Source: Patescibacteria group bacterium (GTDB taxonomy: Bacteria > Patescibacteriota > Patescibacteriia > XYB2-FULL-38-15). From it: 64,000 bases of DNA. Made by a program: the position numbers and the translations under genes. The stretch lies in the NCBI GenBank assembly GCA_041653675.1, contig JBAZEY010000001.1, forward strand, positions 64,098 to 128,097. The letters are read 5' to 3'. Under the pieces are notes generated by a model. That model searched no databases. It was not told the DNA's origin and worked only from the letters and a program-made list of their open reading frames with translations. This document shows positions 5,311 through 63,732 of this stretch, piece by piece (positions within the stretch are counted from its first letter, which is position 1; every line of letters starts with the position of its first letter).

Positions 5311-5664
5311 ATGGCAAATCTCCAAGAAGTTTGGCTACGGATGCAAAAAACAAAAAAGAAACAAAAAGAAATCAGGTCGGCGTATAAAGATGCGCTCGTG
5401 AATAGCGCTGATTACGGAAAAATCGTGGAAGATTTAAAAACTCTTCGCGAAAAAAAGAAAAAAATTGAAACGGATGTGCGGGGAGATTTTACTTCCGAAT
5501 TTAATGAATTGGAAACCCTAAAAGCGGACACGGAAACTGACGCGGAAATGCTTTCAGATCTCGCCTTAAATACTTTTGTGAAAGGCGAGACAGTTCAGGT
5601 GACTGATGAATACGAAAATAAATACGAACCGGTTTTTGTCGTGAAATTTAAACGGGTGTACTAA
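5311..5664 (+). CDS. hypothetical protein (charged, coiled-coil-like)
   Basis: ORF with native codon usage. No recognisable motif. Confidence 0.35.
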   Translation: MANLQEVWLRMQKTKKKQKEIRSAYKDALVNSADYGKIVEDLKTLREKKKKIETDVRGDFTSEFNELETLKADTETDAEMLSDLALNTFVKGETVQVTDEYENKYEPVFVVKFKRVY

Positions 5665-6512: not shown

Positions 6513-7748
6513 ATGAAAAAAATTATTTTGGTAATAGTCGCAGTCATTTTTTTAGTTGCCATCGGCTGGGCGGGAATTTATTTGTGGAAAAACTATGGCG
6601 GGTTTTTGAGAAATATTGAAGAGCCATCAGTAAATATCGTGAATTCGCTGGAAAACCAAAATATTAGCCCACTGCCGCCGAACTCCACCAAAATTCCGCT
6701 GACCTTGCCAAACGGATTTTCTATTTCCATTTTTGCAAAAAATCTTGGCGCGCCGCGCGTTGTTATTTCTGATGAAGCTGGACGGCTGCTTGCGAGCGTT
6801 CCCAGCGCCGGGAAAATTTTTGCTTTGCCAGACAAAAATCAGGACGGCGCAGCCGATGAAACTATCGAAGTGCTTAGCGGTTTAAATAATCCGCACGGCC
6901 TGGCCTTGTGGTGTGAAAATGAAAAATGCAGTTTGTATGTCGCGGAATCGGACAAATTATCAGTTTATGATTATGATAAAGAAAAAGCCGCCGCGACAAA
7001 TGGAAAGAAAATTGTTGATTTGCCGGGTGGAGGTAGGCACTTTACGCGGACACTGCAATTTTTACCAAATAATCCCGATAAAATTTTAATTTCTGTTGGT
7101 TCGTCTTGTGATGTTTGTAATGAAAGCGATTGGCAGCGGGCAAAAGTTTTAGTTGTTGATATTAAAACCGGCGAGCTCAAAGTTTTTTCCTCAGGTTTGC
7201 GTAATTCAGTTTTTATGGCTGAACATCCGGTAACGGGAAAAATTTGGGCGACGGAAATGGGTCGAGATTTTTTAGGCGACAATCTGCCGCCGGATGAAAT
7301 TAATATTATTGAGGATGAAAAAAATTATGGCTGGCCTATTTGTTACGGAAAAAATATTCACGACACGGTTTTTGATAAAAATGTTTACATTAGAAATCCG
7401 TGCATGGAGCCATTTGAAACGCCGTCTTATATTGATATTCCGGCGCACTCGGCGCCGCTCGGTTTGGCTTTTGTCGCGGAAGGAAGCGGTTGGCCGAAAG
7501 ACTATGAAAATAATTTATTGGTTGCGTATCACGGTTCTTGGAATAGAAGTGTTCCGGCCGGATACAAAATTGTTCGTTATAAACTGGATGCGGAAGGAAA
7601 ATATCTTGGCGAAGAAGATTTTATTTTCGGTTGGCTCGCGGGCGGAGAAGTCCTCGGCCGTCCGGCGGGAATTTTATTTTTTGACGGCGCGGCTTATGTT
7701 TCCGACGATAAAGCCGGCGTGATTTATAAAATAACTTATCATCCTTAA
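6513..7748 (+). CDS. PQQ-dependent sugar dehydrogenase (soluble glucose/sorbosone dehydrogenase, YliI-like)
   Basis: N-terminal TM anchor. Motifs GRDFLGDNLPPDEINII, KNYGWP, GLAF typical of the SGDH beta-propeller family. Confidence 0.7.
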   Translation: MKKIILVIVAVIFLVAIGWAGIYLWKNYGGFLRNIEEPSVNIVNSLENQNISPLPPNSTKIPLTLPNGFSISIFAKNLGAPRVVISDEAGRLLASVPSAGKIFALPDKNQDGAADETIEVLSGLNNPHGLALWCENEKCSLYVAESDKLSVYDYDKEKAAATNGKKIVDLPGGGRHFTRTLQFLPNNPDKILISVGSSCDVCNESDWQRAKVLVVDIKTGELKVFSSGLRNSVFMAEHPVTGKIWATEMGRDFLGDNLPPDEINIIEDEKNYGWPICYGKNIHDTVFDKNVYIRNPCMEPFETPSYIDIPAHSAPLGLAFVAEGSGWPKDYENNLLVAYHGSWNRSVPAGYKIVRYKLDAEGKYLGEEDFIFGWLAGGEVLGRPAGILFFDGAAYVSDDKAGVIYKITYHP

Positions 7749-17705: not shown

Positions 17706-18092
17706 ATGGGGGAATTACAAAACAATCATTTTAATCTAGAAGAGCGGACAGCACAATTTGGCATAGCGATAATAAGGTTCAGTAAAACATTGAGTCAAGA
17801 TGCTGTTTCAAGGCCACTTATAAATCAGTTGGTGAGATCGGGGACTAGCGTCGGTGCGAATTATATGGAAGCCAACGGTGCCAGCTCCAGAAAAGATTTT
17901 CAGAATAAAATTTATATTTGCAAAAAAGAAGTTCAAGAAACAAAACATTGGTTGAGAATGATCGCGGAGTGTTGCCCCAGCTGTAGAGAACGGGCAAGAA
18001 TTTTATGGGCCGAAGCACAAGAGCTGACTCTAATTTTTGGAAAAATAGTTTCTACTTTAAATAGCAAAAAAAGGGACGAACAGATTTTATAA
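17706..18092 (+). CDS. four-helix-bundle protein (23S rRNA intervening-sequence protein family)
   Basis: GTSVGANYMEANGASSRKDFQNKIYICKKEVQETKHWLRMI matches the conserved core of that family. Confidence 0.7.
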   Translation: MGELQNNHFNLEERTAQFGIAIIRFSKTLSQDAVSRPLINQLVRSGTSVGANYMEANGASSRKDFQNKIYICKKEVQETKHWLRMIAECCPSCRERARILWAEAQELTLIFGKIVSTLNSKKRDEQIL

Positions 18093-18139: not shown

Positions 18140-19030
18140 AATTAAAATAAAGAGAGGTCCGTCCGCAAATTGGATTTAGAGTCCAAGTCGCAGGCAGACC
18201 TCAATGGGTGGGATAGAAGAGTCTCAAGAGTCGAGACTCGGGCGGGACGAACTAGTACAGGTCGTCGGCCGGGTCCTCGAGCTGTCCACCGGTGTGGAGC
18301 AGCCGGAGGTGGTCGTCGTCGCAGGCCAAGGCGATCGCGCGATCGCGGTCGCGGGTCTGGCGCCAGACGCCGTCGGGATCCCTCACGAGATCGGCGGGAT
18401 CGTCTTCTCCGTCGTCGCCACGCTGGTCGGGCGACAGCAGTTCGCGCAGTTCTTCGGACAGTTCGCCGCGGTTCAAATCGCACTCCGCGAAACGTCGGCA
18501 AGCCATTCTACCCACTCCTCCTTCCCAACTCCGCTCGGATGAGCGAAGTGATGACCTCCTCCTGATAGTCATCCAGTTGTTTAGAAATTTTTCCAAGCAA
18601 CTGGATAATTGTCAGGAATTTCCGCCTCTTCGGTGGATTTATTTTTTTAAAAAAGTAGGGGCAGAAGAGTTTTTACGCTCCTCTGCCCCATCGTGTTCAA
18701 TGCGCGCCCCGCGCTGCAGTTTCGGGGTAGGGCATTCGCGTTTCCTCCCTGCCGTTTGGATGTGGGTGCCTGCCACCAAACATTGTGTGGTCCAGAATAC
18801 ACACCCTGGGTTAGTTGGCCATCGGCGCTCGCCGGGCGGTGGGGGCGAACATCGAAATGTCGCCTGTCGCGTAATCGGTTAGAGCAGCCTTGGCCCAGCT
18901 CAGAACAGCCTCATCGCCGGCGTCGTCGTGCCGGCACGCGCTTCGGGGAATCCCGCTTTTGCCAGATGGCAGAGCGGTTAGCTCGGTCCTAAGCCGGTTA
19001 AGGCCGTGACAGAGCTTCCCCACGTTCGGT
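18140..19030. other. GC-rich (~62%) island lacking a credible long ORF
   Basis: Six-frame ORFs overlap on both strands in the Arg-rich-junk pattern of GC-rich noncoding DNA. Bounded by AT-rich intergenic sequence. Confidence 0.5.
18252..18505 (-). CDS. small acidic protein (84 aa), very high GC3, perfect SD (GGAGGAG-N7-ATG)
   Basis: MACRRFAECDLNRGELSEELRELL... About 85% G/C at third positions. SD and ATG read from the sequence. A 7-bp hairpin GAGTCTC...GAGACTC follows the stop. Confidence 0.4.
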
Positions 19031-19168
19031 GGTTTTACTTTATCATATTTTTATAATTTTGTCAAGGGTTATTGACAAAATAAGCAAAAAGCCCCAGTTT
19101 TATAGGGCTTTTCTTTATTCCGTATTTATGTTATGATATGTGAATAATTAATAAAAATTAGTAATATT

Positions 19169-55157: not shown

Positions 55158-55290
55158 CCACACCCCGTAGTAGAACTTCGACTTGAAATAATACTACACT
55201 ATTTTTTCAATTTTTGACTATGCACCATAGCGAATCATTGACGGATATTTTTGTTCGCCGCGAGCGAACCGTCGAAGTTTCACTACGGGG
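55153..55290. mobile_element. MITE-like element copy 1 (~138 bp; TIR CCCCGTAGTAGAACTTCGAC / GTCGAAGTTTCACTACGGGG; flanking 4-5 bp direct repeat CACA(C)) inserted at the 5' end of tRNA-Pro
   Basis: Inverted repeats and duplicated CACAC flank read from the sequence. The left TIR supplies the first 5 nt of the tRNA. Confidence 0.45.
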
Positions 55291-61519: not shown

Positions 61520-62233
61520 ATGTTTCATCAAGTTTGGCATGATGTTCTATACACCCCTCTTTTGAATGTTTTGATTTGGCTTTATAATGTTCCGGCTTTT
61601 GGAAATTTGGGCGTAGCGATTATTTATTTAACAATCATTATTCGCGTTGTTCTTTTGCCTTTTACGGTTGTTTCCGAACGCAGCAAAATTTTATACGAAA
61701 GATTGGGGCAAAAGATAGACAGAATCGGGCAAGATTTTAAAAACGATCCGATTCAGAAAAAAGAAATGATTCGCAAGGTCATGCGCGAACATCGAGTGAG
61801 CCCTTGGGCAAAAGTTATGGTTTTAGGCGTTCAGGCTTTAACCTTGGTTCTTTTGTACCAAGTTTTCATTGGCGGAATTAATGGCAAGCTCGGCGACCTA
61901 TATTCTTGGGTGACTCATCCAGATTTTATTAATACGGATTTTTTGGGATTTGACTTGGGAGAGGTGAGAAATTTATTTTGGAGTGGGCTGGTCGGCGCGG
62001 TTTTATTTTTAGAAATTTTTATTGACTACCGCGGCAAGTCAACCGGACTCACTAAATCCGAAGTGGCTTACATGATCTTTTTCCCCGCTGCCGTTTTTCT
62101 GACGCTCTGGATTTTGCCGATAGCTAAATCAATTTTTATTTTAACTTCAATTTGTTTTTCTTTTATTGTAATTTTCTTTAGGCAGATATTTAAAAAGAGA
62201 TTTGAAGCGGCGCCCGCAGAGTCAAAGAAATAA
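61520..62233 (+). CDS. yidC: YidC/Oxa1-family membrane protein insertase (short form)
   Basis: Conserved core GNLGVAIIYLTIIIRVVLLPFTV...KILYERLGQKIDRIGQDFKNDPIQKKEMIRKVMREHRVSPW. Confidence 0.7.
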   Translation: MFHQVWHDVLYTPLLNVLIWLYNVPAFGNLGVAIIYLTIIIRVVLLPFTVVSERSKILYERLGQKIDRIGQDFKNDPIQKKEMIRKVMREHRVSPWAKVMVLGVQALTLVLLYQVFIGGINGKLGDLYSWVTHPDFINTDFLGFDLGEVRNLFWSGLVGAVLFLEIFIDYRGKSTGLTKSEVAYMIFFPAAVFLTLWILPIAKSIFILTSICFSFIVIFFRQIFKKRFEAAPAESKK

Positions 62234-62254
62234 AGATATAAAAATAAATTTTTG

Positions 62255-62281
62255 AAACCGGCCATAAAGCCGGTTTTTTTA
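62255..62281 (+). terminator. rho-independent terminator (ACCGGC-CATAAA-GCCGGT + TTTTTTT)
   Basis: Read from the sequence. Confidence 0.65.
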
Positions 62282-62347
62282 AATCCCTTGACTCGCTATC
62301 GCTCGCTCAGAAAATAATTATGTCCTGAGTCTGTCGAAGGCCGGGGA

Positions 62348-62376
62348 TTGACAAAATTTTCATTCCATGATATAAA
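62348..62376 (+). promoter_or_regulatory. sigma70 promoter TTGACA-17-TATAAA upstream of the GC-rich noncoding unit
   Basis: Read from the sequence. Confidence 0.5.
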
Positions 62377-62384
62377 GATATGTG

Positions 62385-63566
62385 CGGGCAAACTTTCGTA
62401 AATTCAATCCGGGAGGATTAAGACACCGGTAGGTGATTGCCTCTCCAACAGGCCCGCCTTGAAAGATACGAGCTACCGCTCGTTGGAAATATGACGCGGC
62501 AGATAACTGCCGTAAGCCGCTGTAGCGCAATACGGGTATGCGTTTCGGAGCAATACCCTGAAGTTGTGGAGGTTCAAATCCTCCCTAGCGGCTCTACGAA
62601 GGTTGGCGGCCGGCGGAAGATCTCAGCCGGGTACGTCAGCAGCGGCCAGCGCGCTTGGCGCGTGTGGCTTAAAAAAAAGCCCAGTGGCTAAGTCCAAGGG
62701 GACTAGAATTGGGAAGTGTGCTCTCCCGAGCCACAGGGGAGAGCGCCAAAGCTTCCGCGAGCCGAGCTCGCGTTGGCAATAAGTTGCGGTCGGTCTGAAA
62801 GCGCGAATACGAGCGTGGTGTCGGGTTTCCCCCGATGGCTCTGGGCGCTTGCCGGCCGCGACCTGCGCTGTTCCAAAGCGGCTGCCAGAATGCGGTCGTT
62901 GAACGCTCGCCGCCAGAATGCGGTGGGCGGAATGGCGCAGATCTTTGCTCCCCGTGGTTGCCTGGATGGTGGTCTGGGCATGGGGCATTAAGGTTTCCCG
63001 ACGCCACTTGGGAAATCAGGAGGAACCCTGCTCGTCGTTATCCGCCTTAGGCGGACTGCGGCGGGTATAAAAATCTCGCGGGTGCCATCACACACTGCGA
63101 GATGGGGGCGGCACAATCGGACTCGGTGGGGTGGATCCTCCTGAGGAGGAGTTCCAGCCGAGATCGGTTCCGGGCCAAGGGAGGCCTGCTGTGTCGCTTT
63201 CTCTTAATCACGACCCATCGGGTTTGTCGGGCTTGCTCGGCAGCACGGTGGGTTGGGGCCCGGCGGTTGTCCAGGTGGTTCTGGGCAGGGCTTTAAAGGA
63301 CGCTCTCCGCCGCTATAAGAGAGGTCTAGGCGTTCCTGTCGTTCCGCAAGGGGCGAATCCCGATACTGAAACCACACCAGTAAAGGGACATCAGGAAGCG
63401 ACATAATCATGTTCCCCTCCCTGAGGAACACATGATTCCGGGCTATTTCCCGCCGTGGTATGCCTGCGATGTCGCAGTTTGCTCAGTACTTCCAAGTGCG
63501 GAATCCCGCGCGAGGAAGTCGCGATACTGCGCCGTGATGATTCATTCGTCACGGCGCCCTTTTTTA
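62385..63566 (+). ncRNA. candidate large structured RNA (~1.2 kb, ~58-60% GC, promoter-to-terminator, no credible ORF; family unidentified)
   Basis: Arg-rich junk ORFs in all six frames. Dense local hairpins. Embedded tRNA-like element. Ends at strong terminator GCGCCGTGA...TCACGGCGCCCTTTTTT (63529-63566). Confidence 0.3.
62515..62591 (+). pseudogene. tRNA-like element (acceptor, D-arm and canonical T-arm GGAGG-TTCAAAT-CCTCC present; anticodon arm degenerate)
   Basis: Hand fold gives 7-bp acceptor GCCGCTG/TAGCGGC, U8, A14, D-stem GCGC/GCGT, T-loop TTCAAAT. No 5-bp anticodon stem/7-nt loop. One extra base between T-stem and acceptor. Confidence 0.3.
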
Positions 63567-63579
63567 TCGATGACCTTGA

Positions 63580-63703
63580 CCCCGTAGTAGAATTTCGGAA
63601 TGTGAAACGGCGTTATGCAAACAAGCTTTGTGACAATTTAAAATTTTTTTAAAACAAATTATTTTTTCCGGCTTTGACGGAAATCCGAAATTTCACTACG
63701 GGG
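63580..63703. mobile_element. MITE-like element copy 2 (~124 bp; TIR CCCCGTAGTAGAATTTCGGA / TCCGAAATTTCACTACGGGG; flanking direct repeat TTGA(C))
   Basis: Same TIR family as 55153-55290, including the same asymmetric AG/GA positions. Internal sequence differs. Confidence 0.45.
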
Positions 63704-63732
63704 TTGACAAAATTGCTTTTCAGAGTTAGTAT
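63704..63732 (+). promoter_or_regulatory. sigma70 promoter TTGACA-17-TAGTAT for the last gene
   Basis: Read from the sequence. The -35 overlaps the MITE target duplication. Confidence 0.45.

Follow-up and report, generated by a model that had tools for sequence, protein, structure and literature searches.

A tRNA-shaped element in a modular non-coding RNA unit of Patescibacteria, a possible processing or scaffold handle

Introduction

What is the role of an element that has the acceptor stem and the T arm of a tRNA, lacks a canonical anticodon arm and lies within a GC-rich RNA unit of a bacterial chromosome? We address this question for a tRNA-like structure (TLS) of a Patescibacteria group bacterium (assembly GCA_041653675.1), located in a stretch of 64,000 nucleotides of contig JBAZEY010000001.1 (positions 64,098 to 128,097, forward strand), which is referred to here as the window. 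Unless stated otherwise, coordinates are those of the window and features lie on its plus strand. There are well-documented cases of tRNA mimicry in long non-coding RNAs (ncRNAs) among eukaryotes and their viruses, as well as in a few bacterial RNAs (Y RNAs, tmRNA and the linkers of GOLLD RNAs). Our favored interpretation, to which we assign about an even chance, is that the TLS is a tRNA-shaped processing or scaffold handle within a modular ncRNA and does not function in decoding.

The tRNA-like element of the window

The TLS spans 78 nt (62516–62593) and was delimited by sequence reading, the Rfam tRNA model, folding and ARAGORN at relaxed settings. A preliminary description of the locus had placed a 77-nt element at 62515–62591; the element is real, and its coordinates were one base off. 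All of the tRNA parts named in that description can be read directly in the sequence. The 7-bp acceptor stem is formed by GCCGCTG (62516–62522) and TAGCGGC (62586–62592), and is followed by the discriminator U62593 and by C-U-A, a CCA-like C-Y-R trinucleotide (62594–62596). U8 and A14 correspond to 62523 and 62529, respectively. The D region (62525–62543) contains GCGC (62525–62528) and GCGT (62540–62543) as stem strands and GGG (62534–62536) in its loop, and the T arm GGAGG-TTCAAAT-CCTCC occupies 62568–62584. The element thus has the 7-bp acceptor, the UUCRANN T loop and the D-loop GG of a tRNA, except for a single extra base, either C62585 or U62586, that is bulged at the junction of the T stem and the acceptor. 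A G·U pair is present at a stem end.

The central region (62544–62567) lies between the D region and the T arm. A canonical anticodon arm, with a 5-bp stem, a 7-nt loop, U33 and a purine at position 37, is absent. However, a weak anticodon-like arm, UCGG(A)/(C)CUGA, can be drawn with an A·C mismatch and the loop GCAAUAC, which has C33, so that "no canonical anticodon arm" is more accurate than the original wording, "no anticodon arm". The energetically favored pairing is the 6-bp helix GGGUAU (62534–62539)/AUACCC (62553–62558), with 13 nt between its strands, as previously described. With this alternative helix, the D and anticodon regions form a single long arm, and a three-way junction results. 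The D stem and this helix had been described side by side and each is indeed present, but they are mutually exclusive unless a pseudoknot is formed, because the "13-nt loop" includes GCGT and the "GG in the D loop" is the GGG of the helix.

The isolated 78-mer has a folding z-score of −3.0, and none of 200 shuffled sequences was as stable. The minimum free energy (MFE) of the three-way-junction fold is −31.0 kcal/mol, compared to −23.8 to −25.8 kcal/mol for the cloverleaf, which is thus 5–7 kcal/mol worse. Five of the six GGGUAU/AUACCC pairs have probabilities of 0.97–1.0, whether the element is folded alone or as part of the full transcript. Within the folded 1184-nt transcript, the acceptor pairs have probabilities of 0.69–0.98 and the T-stem pairs of 0.77–1.0. 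We conclude that the TLS is genuine and independent of its context.

The Rfam tRNA model (RF00005) matches the TLS with 27.4 bits (E = 0.0039) in a permissive search of 1.5 kb, compared to a gathering cut-off of 29. The element is unlisted in the gathering mode of Rfam and is not called by ARAGORN at default settings. With its thresholds set to 95% (-ps), ARAGORN reports a "tRNA-Ile(aat)" at 62516–62594, with the A·C mismatch in the anticodon stem and C33. This relaxed cloverleaf with a 7-nt loop, together with the Rfam E-value, would be consistent with a genuine, if odd, decoding tRNA-Ile with the anticodon AAU. We consider such a function extremely improbable. Both programs place the element below their default thresholds, the A·C mismatch closes the anticodon stem, and the cloverleaf is disfavored by 5–7 kcal/mol. 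Moreover, the homologous modules described below hold loops of 6–35 nt or whole domains at the anticodon position. U33 is universal in tRNAs, and to our knowledge an anticodon of the unmodifiable A34 type is not used for isoleucine in bacteria. The preliminary conclusion that this is not a functional canonical tRNA therefore holds, on the basis of the sub-threshold score, C33, the "anticodon" A34-A35-U36, the mismatched stem and the better competing fold. The relaxed ARAGORN run that had been proposed as a check yielded no normal tRNA, just this implausible tRNA-Ile(AAU) with C33.

A family of tRNA-like modules in related loci

Related loci (designated by L-numbers) were fetched via relatives of YidC, encoded immediately upstream of the unit, from species genomes, metagenomes and exact-protein look-ups. 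L001 and L002 are 100% identical and add nothing to the comparison. The preliminary description had named the lack of conservation in homologous loci as a result that would refute it; the module class is instead kept in ten of about 15 distinct variants of the unit. These variants hold one or two TLS each, 12 modules in total (the window, L005, L006, L007, L083, L088, L163 and L168 with one, L003 and L089 with two). Several modules score above the Rfam tRNA cut-off (29 bits), namely those of L005 (62.3), L083 (60.9), L089b (53.8) and L006 (38.2).

Covariation was assessed in ten aligned members from which the anticodon-arm inserts had been trimmed, with pairs counted for natural bases only. 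In the acceptor and T stems, 99.2% of the cells are paired, and nine of the 12 pairs show changes on both sides. None of 500 shuffles reached the observed values, and sliding the pairing partners reduced pairing to 45–64%. When ten relatives were folded (a set without L163 and L168), all adopted a four-way cloverleaf on energetic grounds alone. Most members retain the elbow nucleotides, namely GG in the D loop and UUCRA in the T loop. The discriminator is followed by C-Y-R in all 12 modules (CTA in five, CCG in three, CCA and CTG in two each); among real tRNA genes of the window, three of six encode CCA. The modules are located between RNA domains that are closed by their own helices.

The anticodon position is occupied by arms of very different sizes. 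The small forms are a 6-bp stem with a tetraloop (L089b) and arms with loops of 6, 7, 8 or 9 nt. The larger forms have loops of 31–35 nt containing a hairpin (L083 and L006) or a 60-nt arm (L089a), and the largest consist of a branched domain of ∼165 nt (L007 and L088). The L006 module carries an additional 57-nt insert in the D loop. In the eight modules that can be aligned, the body is 84% identical and the stem at the anticodon position only 51% identical, yet 5/5 pairs are formed in each, and the loops vary from 6 to 35 nt. L083 and L163 illustrate this contrast: 45 of 47 body positions are identical, compared to 6 of 10 in the arm stem, and the loops (31 and 7 nt) are unrelated. We conclude that structural selection keeps the "top half" of a tRNA, namely the 7-bp acceptor stacked on the T arm and usually the D/T elbow, together with the C after the discriminator. 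The anticodon position is a free slot, at which the arm is kept and the anticodon loop is not.

The acceptor and T arm with a replaced anticodon arm are also found in the tRNA-like domain of tmRNA, and a tmRNA-like mimic was among the suggestions made previously. This idea, or that of an otherwise aminoacylated tRNA mimic, did not survive the comparison and we find it scarcely credible. Of the ten members in the alignment, the window has C-G as pair 3:70 and the remaining nine have G-C; G·U is never found. Neither ARAGORN nor Rfam calls a tmRNA, although a tag reading frame was not searched for. Unlike tmRNA, the TLS of the window is contiguous, only 78 nt long, without G3:U70 and without a detector call. 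Alanyl-tRNA synthetase is the main bacterial synthetase that needs neither the anticodon nor a long variable arm and, since 3:70 is never G·U, it would lack its identity element in these modules. Aminoacylation is thus unlikely, as the TLS lacks an anticodon, G3:U70 and a long variable arm.

The TLS of the window is the most degenerate member of the family: its cargo arm is short, one base is bulged and a three-way-junction fold competes with the cloverleaf. Two hairpins precede it in the leader of the RNA: hp1 (ACGAGC-UACC-GCUCGU, 62468–62483) and hp2 (GCGGCAG-AUAA-CUGCCGU, 62496–62513), the latter ending 2 nt before the TLS. An equivalent of hp1 (CGAGC-NNNN-GCUCG) lies upstream of the TLS in L007 and L089. 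A hairpin of the hp2 type (CGGCAG..CUGCCG) is found 2–3 nt 5′ of the module in L003, L007 and L089 (and in the duplicate contig L137), and short analogous hairpins are present in L088 and L089b; six TLS have a short hairpin 2–3 nt upstream. As the order hp1, hp2 (CGGCAG..CUGCCG) and module is common to the window, L007 and L089a, the TLS of the window is by position one of the cargo-bearing type with a shortened arm.

The degeneracy of this copy raises the question of whether it is a decaying, non-functional remnant of a module or of a captured tRNA gene, which we consider unlikely, if well short of negligible. Its 27.4 bits are the lowest score of the family, compared to 38–62 bits, and it has a bulged base, a G·U pair at a stem end and a competing fold that is 5–7 kcal/mol better than the cloverleaf. 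In addition, no orthologous sequence was found in other species among the related loci, and the modules come and go between close relatives. However, the acceptor and T helices are perfect save for one bulge, the T loop is canonical and the z-score is −3.0. The order hp1-hp2-TLS and the C-Y-R trailer are also retained, as in L007 and L089. A tRNA-gene origin of the modules is plausible, and the copy in the window could be decaying.

The RNA unit that contains the element

The TLS starts 130 nt into a modular ncRNA unit, whose predicted primary transcript (62383–63566, ∼1.18 kb) is bounded by a promoter and an intrinsic terminator. The promoter (62348–62376) consists of the −35 hexamer TTGACA (62348–62353), a 17-nt spacer and an extended −10 element, TGnTATAAA (62368–62376), all read directly in the sequence. 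The same layout (TTGACAAAATT...TG-N-TATAAA) is present ahead of the unit in most relatives and is exact in L004, L005, L007, L083 and L163; the promoters of the other relatives have variant −10 or −35 hexamers. A promoter consensus scan that demanded T at position 6 of the −10 hexamer left the promoter of the unit unlisted. The terminator (63529–63566) has a 12-bp stem with 8 GC pairs followed by a T run, and is kept in L003, L005, L083, L088, L089 and L164. The GC content of the unit is 58–65%, compared to ∼40% in the flanks, and its full-length MFE is −570.7 kcal/mol. In the MFE fold of the transcript, the trailer of the TLS (62595–62604) forms 10 bp with the far 5′ leader (62391–62400), a pairing that would close the first 220 nt as one domain containing the TLS.

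Downstream of the TLS, the unit consists of a series of modules that are shared with relatives in different combinations. Module e (62684–62747) is common to L006 and L089, with 73–77% identity by blastn. Module f (AAGCUUCC-GCGAG..CUCGC-GUUGGCA) together with helix g (62748–62862) encloses a variable hairpin; module f is kept in eight loci. The strands of helix g, GUUGCGGUCGG (62783–62793) and CCGGCCGCGAC (62852–62862), pair in the MFE fold and, on direct reading of the sequences, co-vary in L006, L085 and L088. The largest conserved structured domain, class B, covers ∼340 nt (62858–63200). For six class-B sequences, RNAalifold gave 100 pairs, of which 32 have compensatory changes. A segment at about 63201–63480 has no detectable homologue in any related unit. 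It is followed by module j, a nearly invariant 3′ hairpin (ACUUCC-AA-GUGCGG..CCGCGC-GA-GGAAGU, 63483–63527) that occurs in ten loci, with 12 pairs, one of them compensatory. A further module, X (137 nt), lies directly 3′ of five TLS in relatives and is absent from the window; five sequences give 40 pairs, nine of them compensatory, and its 13-bp closing helix covaries.

Two side observations concern these domains. Module j can form two mutually exclusive hairpins, either ACUUCC/GGAAGU enclosing GUGCGG..CCGCGC or CGCGA-GGAAG-UCGCG, and AGCUUCC of module f (62750–62756) could also pair with GGAAGU of module j; this region may act as a structural switch. In L164, a T-arm-like hairpin (CCGGG-TTCGATT-CCCGG, about 5455–5475) is located in a variable loop of class B, where the window has an unrelated hairpin.

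A protein-coding function of the unit was considered and rejected. Its open reading frames (ORFs) are of the chance type only and have no Pfam match, and the class-B alignments carry indels of 1, 4 and 5 nt, which indicates that class B is non-coding. Rfam searches of the 64-kb window at gathering thresholds and of 62200–63700 at E ≤ 10 returned only the sub-threshold tRNA match. GOLLD, ROOL, RNase P, tmRNA, the signal recognition particle RNA, 6S RNA, group I and II introns, riboswitches and ribozymes were not detected there, nor were they in nine related loci. Class B, module X, module j and helix g have no matching Rfam family, and no second copy of any module of the unit was found in the 64-kb window.

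A hypervariable site between conserved genes

The unit is flanked upstream by yidC (61520–62233, PF02096) and downstream by a Band_7 gene (from 63778), followed by hrcA, grpE, hsp20 and dnaK. The YidC homologues place the source organism among Falkowbacteria-like Patescibacteria. Adjacency of yidC and the Band_7 gene is kept across the whole group, usually with a spacer of 50–200 nt. In close relatives (YidC 70–95% identical), the spacer holds a GC-rich unit of about 0.45–1.5 kb with a promoter of the same type and one of two terminator types. Relatives without the unit are L087, L090 and L009/L092, and L008 has only a short one; in L087, yidC is 81% identical in DNA and YidC 85% in protein. 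The window and L083 share 93% DNA identity in yidC and 95% in the Band_7 gene, yet only 80 of the 1184 bases of the unit align. With L083 and L163 taken together, the flanking genes are 90–95% identical in DNA and less than 7% of the RNA unit aligns. Positions 62385–62683, which contain the TLS, have no sequence homologue among the related loci. L163 and L085 differ by exactly one TLS plus CTG. In these comparisons of sequence, the locus behaves as a hypervariable RNA island.

Presence/absence and cassette-like indels of this kind (L163 versus L085), a GC content far above that of the genome and an adjacent transposon-like element (see below) could point to foreign DNA, with the TLS as att-site scars of integrative elements that target tRNA genes. 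A decayed tRNA captured by an integrated element had been proposed along these lines, a proposal that is not supported. No integrase or conserved ORF is present in the unit, and searches for phage, plasmid-type and viral relatives gave no match. The conserved promoter and terminator of the unit itself, the lack of an integrase and the strong covariation at the RNA level, in the TLS stems and in the other domains, indicate that the unit is an RNA gene and not an integrated element. We regard the att-scar interpretation as highly improbable.

The suggestion of a viral-type mimic fared no better. A blastn search of the unit against 50,697 phage records gave no match, and a 32-nt module-f pattern was not found in IMG/VR. 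Two 14-mers had at least 120 IMG/VR matches each, but blastn of all units against those 240 viral loci gave no extended match, apart from a marginal one of 57 nt in the tRNA-like region of L003; we therefore attribute the 14-mer matches to chance.

A resemblance to ribosomal RNA was examined separately. A hairpin whose loop together with its closing pairs, GGATTAGATACCC, is identical over 13 nt to the universal 790 loop of 16S rRNA occurs at 2266–2285 of L083 and at 6765–6785 of L003, once in the cargo arm of the L083 TLS and once after the motif GGTTCCGGGC (L003). However, the units gave 17 matches to E. coli 16S, 23S and 5S rRNA, compared to 4–19 in shuffled sequences, and two perfect matches of at least 13 nt, compared to 0–2 in shuffled units. 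rRNA mimicry was rejected on this basis, and the match stays a curiosity.

A proposed processing handle or an uncleaved mimic

In our favored interpretation, the unit is an RNA gene with its own strong promoter in a clade of Falkowbacteria-like Patescibacteria, and the TLS is its processing or scaffold handle. The tRNA maturation machinery would recognize the TLS. RNase P would cut 5′ of G62516, leaving a leader that ends in hp2 (62496–62513), and a 3′ tRNA-processing activity would trim after U62593, so that the ∼1.18-kb primary transcript would be split into separately folded RNAs. The tRNA body would serve as a nuclease-resistant scaffold for the cargo of the anticodon arm, and hp2 would protect the new end of the upstream product in the manner of mascRNA. 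RNase P recognizes its substrates mainly by a 7-bp acceptor that is stacked on a T arm. C74, followed by C or U at position 75, could keep pairing (G-C or G·U) with the GG of the P15 loop of RNase P RNA. A signal for RNase P and RNase Z is thus the best supported of the functions that had been put forward for this element: selection acts on the acceptor, T arm and elbow and leaves the anticodon loop free, C74 never varies and the modules lie between closed RNA domains. A selected acceptor/T minihelix with an unconstrained anticodon loop is the pattern of a mascRNA-type handle, and the TLS family displays it.

Several points weigh against this interpretation. Cleavage by RNase P and at the 3′ side is entirely inferred, and the TLS of the window has no sequence homologue in other species among the related loci. 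Its predicted three-way junction and the bulge between the acceptor and the T stem could both lower recognition. With a hairpin only 2–3 nt upstream, the single-stranded leader available to RNase P is very short, and the pairing of 62391–62400 with 62595–62604 would hold both pieces together after cutting. As four or five variants of the unit (L004, L084, L085/L164 and L008) have no TLS, the element is dispensable for the remaining RNA. Finally, the conservation of C-Y-R is partly inherited, with five members sharing a TLS-X cassette.

Alternatively, the TLS might remain uncleaved within the long RNA and recruit a tRNA-binding partner such as the ribosome, EF-Tu, a modification enzyme, a toxin or a phage factor, similar to the effector module of bacterial Y RNAs or to the tRNAs in GOLLD linkers. 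An uncleaved mimic would be expected to show the same conservation pattern, including the elbow nucleotides kept in most members, and a hypervariable locus between near-identical flanks would suit a conflict-type role. There are also precedents: the tRNA-like domain of YrlA is an effector module (PMC4201824), and GOLLD, whose linkers sometimes hold tRNAs, pulls down ribosomes (PMC12286853). On the other hand, a full 7-bp acceptor with free flanks is an RNase P substrate, whose escape from cleavage would need protection. A Pfam scan of 29 ORFs, which covered part of the window, identified ordinary housekeeping genes and no gene for Ro60 (TROVE), RtcB or a similar protein; RNase P and RNase Z proteins and the CCA-adding enzyme were not among the matches either. 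In addition, the YrlA model has no match in the window and reaches only 22 bits in L083, compared to a cut-off of 69. We see the uncleaved mimic as an appreciable but minor possibility.

Comparison with known tRNA-like RNAs

The processing handle that we favor has a close parallel in mascRNA and menRNA (from MALAT1 and NEAT1) and in the gammaherpesvirus TMERs, which are likewise tRNA shapes without a working anticodon in a longer ncRNA. RNase P, RNase Z and the CCA-adding enzyme all act on mascRNA, and structure protects the new 3′ end of the upstream RNA (PMC8457004). The comparable feature in the window is hp2, 2 nt upstream of the TLS. However, these RNAs are eukaryotic or viral and have a single module at a fixed place, whereas the TLS family is bacterial, with one or two modules at variable places. 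It also differs in being embedded in a reshuffled multi-domain RNA and in carrying cargo in the anticodon arm, and its processing is predicted.

YrlA (RF02553), a bacterial ncRNA as well, has a tRNA-like domain in which the D/T elbow is retained. The M. smegmatis YrlA, whose acceptor has 7 bp, is cleaved by RNase P and acquires CCA (PMC4201824). In YrlA, the Ro-binding stem is made of the 5′ and 3′ ends of the RNA, with an internal stem-loop as the "acceptor"; in contrast, the acceptor of the TLS is closed by the ends of the TLS itself, like that of a tRNA gene. The unit is not in an rsr/rtcB neighborhood, as its neighbors are yidC, Band_7, hrcA, grpE, hsp20 and dnaK. The YrlA model gave no match at E ≤ 10 in 62200–63700 and 22.1 bits in L083.

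GOLLD (RF01998) and ROOL (RF03087) are, like the unit, large ornate bacterial ncRNAs. GOLLD has a variable 5′ part, a conserved 3′ part and sometimes tRNAs in its linker (PMC12286853). Similarly, the most conserved piece of the unit is at its 3′ end (module j and the terminator), and tRNA-shaped modules are embedded in it. However, the GOLLD and ROOL models gave no match at E ≤ 10 in the unit of the window or at E ≤ 5 in nine related loci. The unit occupies a syntenic chromosomal site, not a phage or prophage context near tRNA islands, and no viral relatives were found. The tRNAs that GOLLD linkers sometimes hold are real ones, compared to the anticodon-less mimics of the unit.

The modules of L006, L007, L083, L088 and L089a resemble natural versions of the engineered tRNA scaffold, in which the cargo is placed at, or replaces, the anticodon arm. 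Such scaffolds are an established route to recombinant RNA expression in E. coli, where the tRNA body helps to yield RNA that is stable and correctly processed (PMC3753655, PMC3401473). They are man-made, and the TLS of the window itself carries a short arm only.

Other features of the region

A MITE-like element (miniature inverted-repeat transposable element) of ∼126 nt, with 21-nt terminal inverted repeats ACCCCGTAGTAGAATTTCGGA, is present at 63579–63704 and at 55163–55290. The first copy has inserted into the Band_7 promoter and is bordered by TTGAC on either side, and the other abuts the 5′ end of a tRNA-Pro gene. The arms of the element gave four matches in the window, compared to 0.09 expected. 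Related insertions are found at the same Band_7 promoter in L007 and L164. A short sequence, CCCCTCTTAAGATAAGAGGGGATTAAG, occurs just outside the units at about 1686–1720 of L084 and about 4797–4830 of L088, following the terminator in one relative and preceding the promoter in the other, and might represent a small repeat element.

A second GC-rich (60–70%), ORF-poor block is located on the minus strand of the window at 18150–19040, adjoining a gene of the 23S_rRNA_IVP family (17706–18092). It has a promoter-like sequence similar to that of the unit, TTGACAAAATT...TATGATAAAG, at about 19070–19041 (minus strand) and a terminator-like hairpin with a T run near 18650–18690. The block has no Rfam or Pfam match and is dissimilar to the yidC-Band_7 unit. 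It may encode another RNA of ∼380 nt, possibly with a small GC-rich ORF.

Significance

The locus is not described in the literature that we consulted on structured RNAs and tRNA-like elements of Patescibacteria, the candidate phyla radiation and Falkowbacteria, a survey of incomplete coverage and weak evidence for novelty. The unit looks like a member of an undescribed family of modular ncRNAs. Tentatively, and with low confidence, it might represent a whole class of large modular ("ornate") ncRNAs, previously undescribed and specific to a clade of Patescibacteria, in which tRNA scaffolds display interchangeable cargo and cassettes are exchanged between the flanks in a conflict-like manner. 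One possibility is that such RNAs are decoys or sponges for factors that recognize tRNA-shaped or other conserved RNA shapes. The fast turnover of cassettes between conserved flanks is the most unusual feature of the unit. Class B (∼340 nt), module X (∼137 nt) and module j are ready candidates for new RNA families.

The broader interest of the locus lies in a family of anticodon-less tRNA modules, some with large inserts, that resides in a chromosomal RNA of 0.45–1.5 kb in small-genome Patescibacteria. If the modules are indeed handles or scaffolds, bacteria would have a natural equivalent of the mascRNA mechanism and of the engineered tRNA scaffold alike, and these reduced organisms would devote about 0.1% of their genome to an accessory RNA with quickly swapped parts.

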